From the NCBI GenBank assembly GCA_964559315.1, contig CAZLGL010000008.1, forward strand, positions 31,065 through 95,064: 64,000 nucleotides of DNA, read 5' to 3'. Of this stretch, positions 12,301 to 15,300 are shown one piece after another (the first letter of the stretch is position 1; every line of letters starts with the position of its first letter). The stretch comes from an uncultured Coxiellaceae bacterium. GTDB lineage: Bacteria > Pseudomonadota > Gammaproteobacteria > DASZBR01. Made by a program: the position numbers.

Positions 12301-15300
12301 ATATAACAAATTAATTTGTTTCGTATCCCCCGTTACGCCTATAAAGTCGGGATTATATTTTATGGCATATTTTTTCAGTGCGTCCAAAGAATCATCAGCA
12401 GGATCAATCGACACAAAGACGATTTTCGGAATGGGCGTTTGTTTTTGCGCAGCTAATAAATGAACCATTTTATTTAATTCACTCATCGTGCCCGACATTT
12501 CTTCCGAGCCATGGGTTGCCGCACCAAATACTATAAATGTCCAATGCGCCCACAGGGTATTATTGTTAAACGGTTTTCCATTGGAATCCACTAAGGAAAA
12601 TTTATCGATGTCTTTGGGCGGTGATAACACATACGCATTTAATCCACCTGAGGTTTGAGTCGAACCCGTGTGATGCCATAATTTCATTCCGATCACTAAA
12701 GCAAAAAGCGCGACAATTGCAATCAATATATTTAATCTACTCATTCTGTGACTCTCCGCATTAAGATAAAACAGTCCTGTAAATTTCTTAGAATTCTATA
12801 TAAAATCAAGCTTTGAGGAAACTGTATGATTATCACATTGATTGCCGCCATGACACCACAACGTGTCATTGGAAAAAATAACCAACTGCCGTGGAACATG
12901 CCAGCGGATCTGGCGCACTTTAAAAAATTAACCGTGGGCAAACCCGTGATTATGGGACGCAAAACGTATCAATCGATCGGACGACTTCTACCGGAACGTA
13001 AAAATATTATCATCACGCGCGATAAAGATTTTCAGGTTGATGGCGCAGAAATTTTTCATGACATTCCTTCCGCTTTTCATGATTTAAAAGAATATGCGGA
13101 AGTGTGTGTCATTGGCGGCAGTGAAATCTTTAAGCAAACATTAACCCTCGCCAACGTTTTAGAACTAACGTATATCCAAGCGGCCATAGATGGTGATAGC
13201 TTTTTCCCTGAATTTGATACAGATGAATTTAAAGAAGTGGCGCGCCAAGAAAACAAAGCAGATGAAAAGAATCCGTATGATTATACTTTCTTAACTTTTA
13301 AGCGAATTTAATTTATAGGTCATCCTGAGCAAGCGGATCGAGTCGAAGGATGATATAGGTTATACAAACTTCACCATAAAAAACAATTCCGTCGGATGAT
13401 CTTTCGGTGACCACGCCCGCTCATAAATCATATGTATTTGTGTTTGAAGAGGTGGTTTTCGAAATGCTTTAGGCTTTGCGTGAAATACCCAAATGGTTTT
13501 TCCACCTGCTCCAATTAATTTTGAGTTCGGCACCAAATATTTTTCAGTTTTTAATGTCATCAATGATTTATCGTAGATAACACGCCATCGATAACCTGTC
13601 GTTGCATTGGACGGCTGAGTAATTTTAAATTCGGGGGAATCGCGCGTTACGGCAATGGTTTCAGCTTCAGCAAGAGCAAATAAAGGAAATAACGCCAAGA
13701 CAATACTGCATAAAATCCGCTTAAGCATAACTATCTCTCCAATTGATATGGAACATCCACAAATACGCGTGTGCCGCCTTTGTGTTTTCGATTAAACATC
13801 AACGACGCCTTTAAAAATAAACTGCGCTGATTATGCAACATGTCATGCCACCACCGTGTTGGAATCGCTTGCGGAAATACTAACATACACAAACCACGCT
13901 CGGGTTCGCGATTATCTTGTTGCCGAATAAACTTTCGCAACGGATCAATTGCCGCACGATATGGCGACTCTAAAACTACCAACGGAATTTTAATGTTTAA
14001 CTGCTGCCAATCGGATTCTAGTTTTCGCGTTTGCACAGGATCTAAGGCTACCGCAACTGCCGTCACATCATCAGACACACCTTGCGCAAAATTTAATGCC
14101 GCCAGTGTTCCGCGATGTATACGAGAAACCGGCAAAACAACCTTGGGTTTAATTCCCGCAATTTTATCCAGATACTGATTCGCTTGTGCCGTTGTCATCG
14201 ACAATTCATGATCAATCACAACATAATGGTGATGGATCTTATAAAATCCCATCAAAAGTACTGGCACACACAACACAACAAGCCACGCACCCTCCACAAA
14301 TTTACTTTCAATAATCACCGCCAATGCAATGGTCGTCGCAGCAAATCCCAAGCCATTGATAAACGCTTTTGCTTTCCATCGCTGCGTTTTCTTTTTAAAC
14401 CAGTGACTCACCATACCCAATTGCGACAAACTGAATGCACTGAATACACCGACCGCATACAATGGAATCAATAAATGGGTTTCCCCACCAAAAATAATTA
14501 TTAAAATACTCGACACTACAGCAAGCAATACAATACCGTTTGAAAATGACAAGCGATCGCCCAAGCTGGTTAATTGTTTCGGCAAATATTTTTTCTCTGC
14601 CAAAATTGAAGCCAACCGAGGAAAACCTGCAAAAGCCGTATTCGCCGCTAACAATAAAATGGCCATCGTTGAAAACTGCAATGCAAAATATAAAAATCCA
14701 TCACCAAATACTTTACGGGCTATCTGAGACAAAATACTTTGTTTTTCTTGGGGCACTAACATTAAATGGTCGGCCAAATAGGTAACACCAAAGAACATGA
14801 TGATTAATAAGCCTGCGAGCAATACTAATGTCATTGCTGCATTCCGTGCTTCAGGTTTTTCAAAAACGGGGACGCCATTCGCTACACATTCAATTCCTGT
14901 CATAGCAGTACAGCCTGCAGAGAACGCGCGTAAAATTAAAATAATGGCAACGGGCTGAGCCAGATCAGAGAGCTGGGGTTGATAACCGGGAATATGATGC
15001 GGAGGAATGTGCCCCGTAAAAACGCCATAACTTCCCATCCCAACCAATATTAATACTAAAAAAATAAATGCATAGGTTGGAAGTGCAAAAGCGGTTGCAG
15101 ATTCACGCACACCACGCAAATTCATGATGGCAATTATGGCAACAGAAATTAATGATAGACCTACAGAATGTTCATATAAAAAAGGAAAAGCAGACGTCAC
15201 GGCACGAACACCTGCCGTCACACTGACTGCCACCGTTAAAACATAATCTATTAATAGTGCGGCAGCGGCAATTAACCCAGCTCCCTCGCCTAAATTTTCG

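Follow-up and report, generated by a model that had tools for sequence, protein, structure and literature searches.

The 64-kb stretch of DNA from an uncultured Coxiellaceae bacterium that was analysed here (hereafter, the window) contains four short intergenic elements that are, with a probability we put at roughly 80%, (C/T)GTC-tagged hairpin DNA repeats, known as 'CGTC REPs' (REP, repetitive extragenic palindrome) or as 'NTS' and 'SRM' repeats, spread together with cassettes encoding Ssn-type nucleases. An original prediction had called the element MITE/REP-like (MITE, miniature inverted-repeat transposable element) and had left it unnamed. Short GC-rich intergenic palindromes of the REP kind are indeed what the window holds, the MITE half of that description finds no support, and the element matches the (C/T)GTC-tagged hairpin repeats, since tied to Ssn nucleases (PMC3733652, PMC11893778). 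By architecture and gene association, the element is best described as belonging to a distinct subfamily of SRM-type repeats, a kind reported in 2013 and 2025, with one of the four window elements being of a sister type.

The CGTC-tagged REP superfamily was defined in 2013 (Di Nocera et al., PMC3733652) by a CGTC or TGTC tag, stems that open with A-T pairs, a short 3' tail and dimers that are mainly inverted. It includes the Neisseria dRS3 and the Rickettsia RPE-4 and RPE-6 repeats, occurs in Coxiella too and, as that study stressed, lacks an associated tyrosine transposase. Chenal et al. (Nat Commun 2025, PMC11893778) renamed the Neisseria repeat NTS (CGTCATTCCCGCGMAVGCGGGAATCYRG), equivalent to an extended dRS3, and reported that in many phyla NTS and the related SRM repeats occur on either side of ssnA, which encodes a 94-aa protein with a single GIY-YIG domain (cd10448). 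Binding by SsnA requires NTS as single-stranded DNA (ssDNA) and is confined to one of its strands, with the cut falling a few nucleotides upstream. Cutting depends on the three bases that precede the palindrome and binding on the C that adjoins it on the 3' side, and the enzyme lowers transformation by NTS-bearing DNA. The NTS-ssnA-NTS layout is described as resembling an insertion sequence, and many co-evolving pairs of repeat and enzyme are expected (PMC11893778).

Hairpin architecture and association with GIY-YIG genes

Units of the subfamily span 24 to ~45 nt and share one layout, in which an unpaired 5' (T/C)GTC tag is followed by a stem opening with A-T and T-A pairs, tandem G·A mismatches, a GNA triloop or an inserted mini-hairpin, and a C directly 3'. 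Among 459 distinct copies, T (88%) or C (10%) occupies position -1, C position +1 (96%) and T position +2 (76%). These conserved flanks, at -1 and +1, coincide with the positions that matter for cutting and binding by SsnA (PMC11893778). The outer stem triplet is fully paired in 119 of the 136 copies in which the search pattern left it unfixed, against a mean of 64 and a maximum of 77 in shuffles, and the triplets covary as CCT/AGG, TCT/AGA, CCC/GGG, TTC/GAA, TCC/GGA and GCT/AGC.

For the 33-mer repeat, whose top strand reads TGTCATCCTGAGCGAGCGGAGCGAGTCGAAGGATCT, we propose a fold in which the outer part would comprise A-T, T-A, C-G, C-G and T-A pairs and then tandem G·A/A·G, and the inner part G-C and C-G with a bulged T, a second tandem G·A, and G-C and C-G pairs closing a GNA triloop. 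Over 32 distinct sequences the Watson-Crick cells of this fold are 97.2% paired and six of its nine pairs show compensatory changes, a result that none of 500 shuffles equalled and to which slid controls came no closer than 47%. The minimum-free-energy alternative, with an inner helix just 79% paired and one compensatory pair, is contradicted by this covariation and was rejected.

In loci L138, L151, L163, L187 and L205, two inverted copies bracket a gene for a 92-96-aa protein in a unit that runs from the element through ~30 nt to ATG, and from the stop codon through ~12 nt to the inverted element. The bracketed open reading frame (ORF) begins MYYVYIL and encodes a single GIY-YIG domain (PF01541, E = 4e-17). 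Across 1.9 Mb of element-centred loci, five of the six GIY-YIG genes lie within 120 nt of a copy, against only 5.4% of the bases. Tails-in inverted pairs, which share the topology of the gene-bearing unit, make up 99 of 136 neighbour pairs, with members 4-50 nt apart, and account for about two fifths of copies. When the search was reversed and started from the protein, it recovered 12 homologues in viral contigs, nine of them flanked on both sides by (C/T)GTCAT hairpins with differing stems. The flank in L255 is CGTCATTCCCGCGAAGGCGGGAATCCAG, the exact Neisseria NTS consensus, which ties the recovered protein set to the Ssn family; the L255 protein is itself closest to 'GIY-YIG nuclease family proteins' from Sphingomonadales.

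What places the window element with the SRMs is its tag, its 3' C and its gene association, together with the A-T pairs that open and close the stem. Like NTS and SRM repeats, the subfamily consists of oriented hairpins with an unpaired (C/T)GTC tag, a stem running from AT to AT and then a C (then a pyrimidine), is multi-copy and intergenic in many phyla, and has inverted copies that bracket a ~95-aa single-domain GIY-YIG gene. It differs in its stem, which is ATCCT plus tandem G·A plus GC with a GNA triloop or a variable insert, whereas NTS has the perfect 8-bp ATTCCCGC. The window copies moreover have no adjoining ssn gene, and a cognate nuclease would be theirs by analogy. With the CGTC REPs the subfamily shares the CGTC/TGTC tag, A-T at the first two stem positions, a short unpaired 3' tail, a predominance of inverted dimers and the lack of a linked tyrosine transposase. 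CGTC REPs have perfect 8-9-bp stems, 4-5-nt loops and a CCA tail, in contrast to the mismatched modular stems, 3-nt loops or long inserts, and C-T tail found here, and the present subfamily further reaches into Firmicutes, Actinomycetota, Acidobacteriota and the candidate phyla radiation (CPR).

By analogy with the Neisseria member, the top strand of the repeat would be the recognition hairpin of a cognate Ssn nuclease, and the repeats would spread with, or through, repeat-ssn-repeat cassettes, of which gene-less inverted pairs and solo copies would be leftovers. The four window elements are solo copies, inserted in short 3' gaps. On the same analogy, a nuclease may act on the window copies, and the window genome may encode one.

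Several observations weigh against this placement. Neither the 64 kb of the window nor ~150 kb of loci from relatives contained an ssn homologue, and the density of the repeat is low, at two strong copies per 64 kb. The published SRM search string, HGTCWYN(0-2)YYVSBRHN(0-5)WNVSBRGN(0-2)RNCYNB, matches none of 494 copies of the GTCATCCTGAGC family, copies 1 and 2 of the window included, and does match the NTS control; since the string misses the subfamily, membership rests on architecture and gene association and not on the published definition. Both intact window copies lie in the orientation that is in the minority elsewhere. Finally, nearest-neighbour folding energies, for RNA and DNA alike, are no better than those of shuffles (z -1.7 to +1.3). 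G·A pairs and d(GCGNAGC)-type GNA loops are unusually stable in DNA, and the d(GCGNAGC) DNA mini-hairpins were reportedly found to be extraordinarily stable by Hirao and colleagues in the 1990s; the proposed fold relies on such pairs and loops, which nearest-neighbour models score poorly. The centre of both the 24-mer and the 33-mer is GC-GNA-GC, with the middle base free and the G and A kept. Unlike the mini-hairpins, the subfamily embeds this motif in a longer tagged stem, where it may be similarly stable.

Window copies, their settings and their insertion

The features of the window are as follows, with E values for the window copies from an nhmmer profile built solely from copies outside the window.

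Copy 1: 13319-13351, + strand; 33-nt core GTCATCCTGAGCAAGCGGATCGAGTCGAAGGAT; decayed; E = 2e-9.
Copy 2: core 22686-22718, with flanks 22684-22719, - strand; GTCATCCTGAGCGAGCGGAGCGAGTCGAAGGAT; intact and canonical; E = 1.8e-13.
Copy 3: 1481-1512, - strand; degenerate, GTC(C)ATCCCGAGGGAGCGAAGTGACGAGGAAT; E = 0.023, marginal.
Fourth element: 11553-11584, - strand; sister subfamily, T-GTC-ATGCCTCGC-GTC-GGA-GAC-A-CGAGGGAT-C.
TATAGGT direct repeat, left arm: 13314-13320, + strand; its GT is the start of the copy 1 tag.
TATAGGT direct repeat, right arm: 13354-13360, + strand; its last T is the first base of the inhibitor-gene stop codon (TTA on the + strand).

The original prediction had listed three copies, all of which were located, and had missed the well-formed sister-type element at 11553-11584. 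It had put copy 1 at 13311-13344, where the sequence is real and the coordinates are some 9-10 nt too low. Its reverse-orientation copy with four mismatches is copy 2, which agrees with copy 1 at 31 of 33 core positions and differs at four once the flanks are counted, and its degenerate copy at 1484-1516 is copy 3, present with a 1-nt indel in the tag, for which the profile gives marginal support. The pair formed by copies 1 and 2 is the top-ranked inverted repeat of the window (I1, 33 nt, 94%), and 100 shuffles gave no match to the copy 1 34-mer. In total, the window yielded two strong copies, one weak copy and one sister-type copy, as against 0-0.5 in shuffles. When mismatches were allowed more freely, a search for additional copies in the window returned, at 3+2 mismatches and beyond, as many matches as expected from shuffles.

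Gene labels at these sites are Pfam assignments from syntenic relatives, and they bear out the convergent settings given earlier for folA/ICP and infA/clpA. Copy 1 occupies a 48-nt gap between folA and a convergent I42/chagasin-like peptidase inhibitor (ICP) gene, and copy 3 sits between the convergent infA and clpA. Copy 2 lies between the co-directional mutS and tsaC, 9 nt past the mutS stop and 17 nt ahead of the tsaC ATG, and the fourth element fills a 43-nt gap between a 675-aa ORF and tdk. All four are solo copies, each set in a very short gap at the 3' end of a gene, and for three of them the neighbouring genes converge. The window has a G+C content of 40%, and the closest named relatives of its proteins come from metagenome-assembled genomes (MAGs) of uncultured Gammaproteobacteria.

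Copy 2 shows the canonical anatomy of a T-GTC tag and an ATCCT...AGGAT stem, followed by C and T, and its 33-mer is letter-identical to copies in Oscillospiraceae, Rubrivirga and other genomes. A TGTC-AT tag is found in copy 2 (22684-22719) and in the 11553-11584 element, and both retain the 3' C, which is replaced by G in copies 1 and 3. The fourth element forms Watson-Crick pairs where the family of copies 1 and 2 has G·A, carries the inner hairpin GTC-GGA-GAC and, as TGTCATGCCTCGCGTCGGAGACACGAGGGATCTCC, matches the published SRM search string over 11550-11584 (- strand), with ~0.15 matches expected per shuffled window. Copy 1 has a GGTC tag, with G for T/C at -1 (a rare state, seen in two of 459 family copies), G for C at +1 and one broken inner pair (C17·T21); copy 3 has a 1-nt insertion (C) in its tag, one stem mismatch and G in place of the 3' C. 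By these comparisons, copy 2 and the 11553-11584 element keep every conserved feature, whereas copies 1 and 3 are decaying; copy 1 is predicted to be a poor binding target for a cognate nuclease and to escape cutting.

Syntenic loci of relatives revealed the empty sites that the original prediction had suggested looking for. Where FolA is 69-73% identical to that of the window, the folA/inhibitor gap measures 9 nt in L241 and is a 4-nt overlap in L249, and the mutS/tsaC junction of L265 reads TAA-t-ATG, a 1-nt gap. Since these orthologous gaps are empty, the window copies are insertions. The 11553-11584 site also differs in relatives. In L264 the mutS/tsaC gap holds an unrelated 129-nt filler, and in L267 the copy 2 site is occupied by a 38-nt variant of the repeat that supplies the mutS stop codon. 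This inserted repeat (L267 3944-3984) replaces the last mutS codons, so that the protein ends in ...LELSS* instead of ...LEMK*. The mutS/tsaC copy is either old and conserved or repeatedly targeted.

Relatives also presented other insertions in the same gaps. The folA/inhibitor gap of L244 and L246 contains unrelated GC-rich MITEs with terminal inverted repeats (TIRs), namely a 152-nt element with a 27-nt TIR (L244 10487-10638) and a ~200-nt element with a ~50-nt TIR (L246 10491-10690), and a solo arm of the ~200-nt element lies at the tdk gap of L241 (8735-8785). These gaps between convergent genes are insertion hot spots in the clade of the window organism. A variant copy of the repeat, GTCATCCTGAGGAGCGCGTAGCGCGACGAAGGAC, was observed in L244 (20059-20092) at the 3' end of tsaC/Sua5, a position unlike that in the window, so the clade carries the family at low density.

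Alternative explanations for the window copies

A possible reading, to which we give distinctly less than even credence, is that the window copies are inert fossils, brought in with a now-lost ssn cassette or by recombination with foreign DNA, which have no present activity and persist as harmless sequence in 3' gaps. The lack of ssn in the window and in relatives' loci fits this account, as do the decay of two of the four window copies at positions that matter, the low density in the window and in relatives (one variant copy in ~110 kb) and the orientation of the intact copies, which is disfavoured elsewhere. Copy 2 fits it poorly, being letter-perfect and at a site shared with L267, where TsaC is just 74% identical and the spacer between the mutS stop and the element has not been retained. 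The preservation of the copy but not of the spacer would be better explained by constraint, by gene conversion or by repeated targeting than by free decay. The scope within which ssn was sought around the copies is, moreover, 64 kb of a 110-kb home contig.

That the elements are terminators or mRNA-stabilizing 3' hairpins, selected as RNA between convergent genes, is improbable, although the original prediction had proposed a role as bidirectional terminators or RNA stability elements on the strength of their setting. The four window copies do all lie where genes end, in three cases between a convergent pair, and in the wider family convergent gaps outnumber divergent ones by 26 to 9. Against this, the sites of copies 1 and 2 lack a T-run and drew no terminator-like call, folding energies for both RNA and DNA fall within the range of shuffles, and copies in co-directional gaps have no orientation preference (21 sense versus 26 antisense, by crude ORF calling). 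At copy 2 termination would be harmful, since mutS and tsaC appear to form an operon around it, and Ssn does not bind RNA (PMC11893778). The orientation of the repeat instead tracks GC skew, with the tagged strand on the locally C-rich strand in 114 of 140 singletons (81%) from L002-L240, at p = 2e-14 for loci that are non-independent and a skew computed over only 8 kb. If the skew marks the leading strand, the cleavable strand would avoid the lagging-strand template, a sensible arrangement for a site cut as ssDNA. For the annotation of the window genome, the message is one of solo repeat insertions in 3' gaps, and not of regulatory terminators.

We consider it very unlikely that the elements are classical REP/REPIN sequences mobilized by RAYT, an IS200-like Y1 HUH transposase. 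The REP-like size, extragenic location, imperfect palindrome, unpaired 5' tag and frequent inverted pairs all agree with such an origin, and the systems of E. coli and Pseudomonas share the 'REPtron' logic, in which a small nuclease gene lies between inverted, scattered hairpin repeats recognized as ssDNA. The tag, however, is (T/C)GTC and not GTAG, and the enzyme is of the GIY-YIG and not of the HUH/Y1 type. REP/REPIN repeats are also species-specific, whereas the present subfamily is near-identical in sequence across phyla. A tblastn search with IS608 TnpA and E. coli RayT returned a single weak IS200-like match in the 1.9 Mb of loci, 1.9 kb from any copy (a weak negative), so that an association with RAYT is all but absent from these loci, and the same loci hold five flanked GIY-YIG genes; CGTC-type repeats have likewise been reported without a flanking tyrosine transposase (PMC3733652).

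The original prediction had read 7-bp inverted termini and a bracketing ATAGGT repeat at copy 1 as the TIRs and target-site duplication of a mobile element. Both features are real. The inverted termini, TCATCCT/AGGATGA, lie at 13320-13326 and 13347-13353, and are peculiar to copy 1 and not a family trait, arising because its conserved 3' C has mutated, so that the flank pairs with the normally unpaired tag. The direct repeat is 7 nt (TATAGGT) and not 6, the longest at copy 1, the longest at copy 2 being 3 nt. The check for such duplications at other copies, which had been suggested, found no flanking direct repeat at copy 2, copy 3 or the 11553-11584 element, and direct repeats of at least 7 nt flank 15 of 459 family copies, against 5.3 expected, with most of the 15 in tandem or composite repeats. 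We therefore regard TATAGGT at copy 1 as a product of chance (~1-3% per copy) or of local duplication, and not as a family hallmark or a target-site duplication. A MITE moved by a DDE transposase that makes a 6-7-bp target-site duplication would account for the bracket, for the 7-nt gap left when the element and one arm are removed (close to the 9 nt of L241) and for the empty sites in relatives, yet it is scarcely credible given the lack of a flanking repeat at the other three window copies, the small and mainly tandem or composite excess across the family, the inclusion of the element's own GT in the repeat, a length of 33 nt that is far below MITE size, a 'TIR' that is the hairpin stem, and the different make-up of the true TIR-MITEs in the same gap of relatives (152 and ~200 nt, with TIRs of 27-50 nt).

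Distribution of the subfamily and its possible spread

The repeat is not specific to the window genome. The pattern GTCATCCTGAGC-N(0-25)-CGAAGGAT was found in viral contigs in at least 120 stretches and at least 173 copies, with a chance expectation of ~2 as estimated from its 20 specified bases. Element lengths in these contigs cluster at 24/25, 33, 35 and 39 nt, with a middle that varies and in many cases forms a small hairpin of its own. The 33-mer with three free positions, searched in one genome per species, gave at least 119 stretches and at least 135 copies in cultured isolates, MAGs and a closed chromosome, covering at least eight phyla. Among the matches listed, carriers include Oscillospiraceae and Lachnospiraceae (Clostridia), Bifidobacterium and Coriobacteriia (Actinomycetota), Acidobacteriota, Bacteroidota, Gemmatimonadota, Rhodothermota, Omnitrophota, CPR, Rickettsiales and Gammaproteobacteria. 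Sediminibacterium magnilacihabitans and Bifidobacterium pluvialisilvae are two of the cultured carriers. The occurrence of the same 33-mer in gut Clostridia, bifidobacteria, soil Acidobacteriota, Bacteroidota, CPR and the gammaproteobacterium of the window makes this subfamily one of the most widely spread short sequences met in this analysis.

Rfam returned no family at the gathering threshold, either for the window or for seven loci rich in the repeat, and no match up to E = 10 around copy 2; literature searches on the repeat sequence itself yielded unrelated primers or nothing. A coding origin was rejected, since the length classes (24, 25, 33, 35 and 39 nt) are mutually out of frame, and a likeness to the hammerhead core or to group II intron domain V was rejected by eye, as the conserved boxes and the pairing do not fit. 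Other tagged hairpin subfamilies, such as GTCATTTCGACCGAGGGAAGGAGC... and CGTCATTCCGAACTTGGTTCGGAATCT, share contigs with this one (L223, L252 and the flanks of many loci), and several repeat types can therefore coexist in single genomes.

The analysis also revealed tandem partial copies of the repeat. In 40 of 496 copies (8%), among them copies in L123, L124, L127, L196, L197, L199, L226, L240 and other loci, a partial copy consisting of 3-14 nt of upstream flank and the first 16-26 nt of the element lies 20-43 nt upstream, with a mode of 28-30, and just one downstream half-copy of comparable kind was observed. The period is near constant and the junction shifts, a pattern that cleavage upstream of the hairpin, together with repair, may have left behind.

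The description of Ssn nucleases with their hairpin repeats dates only from 2025, and a subfamily that is invisible to the published string yet widespread indicates that the Ssn system reaches further than has been reported. The subfamily adds a new specificity to a class of enzymes that is of interest to biotechnology, and it brings testable regularities, namely the need for the tag and the 3' C, the G·A pairs, partial duplications on one side only and a bias in strand. A more speculative proposal, which we hold at rather long odds, is that the G·A subfamily and its bracketed GIY-YIG genes constitute a self-propagating ssDNA mobile unit, a GIY-YIG counterpart of the RAYT 'REPtron' that would have passed through at least eight phyla almost unchanged, with the 5' partial copies and the strand bias as footprints of Ssn cleavage and repair. 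Were this so, the 5'-only partial copies (period ~28-30 nt) would be the footprint of repeat copying, and the 81% bias of the cleavable strand towards the C-rich strand would be a second one.

Two further repetitive regions were observed in the window. Positions 36609-37001 contain 12 overlapping copies of a 15-nt periodic repeat, whose periodicity resembles that of a pentapeptide-repeat coding region. Positions 58833-61018 consist of two adjoining paralogous segments with a period of ~1150 nt that are 73-78% identical, and look like a tandem gene duplication.

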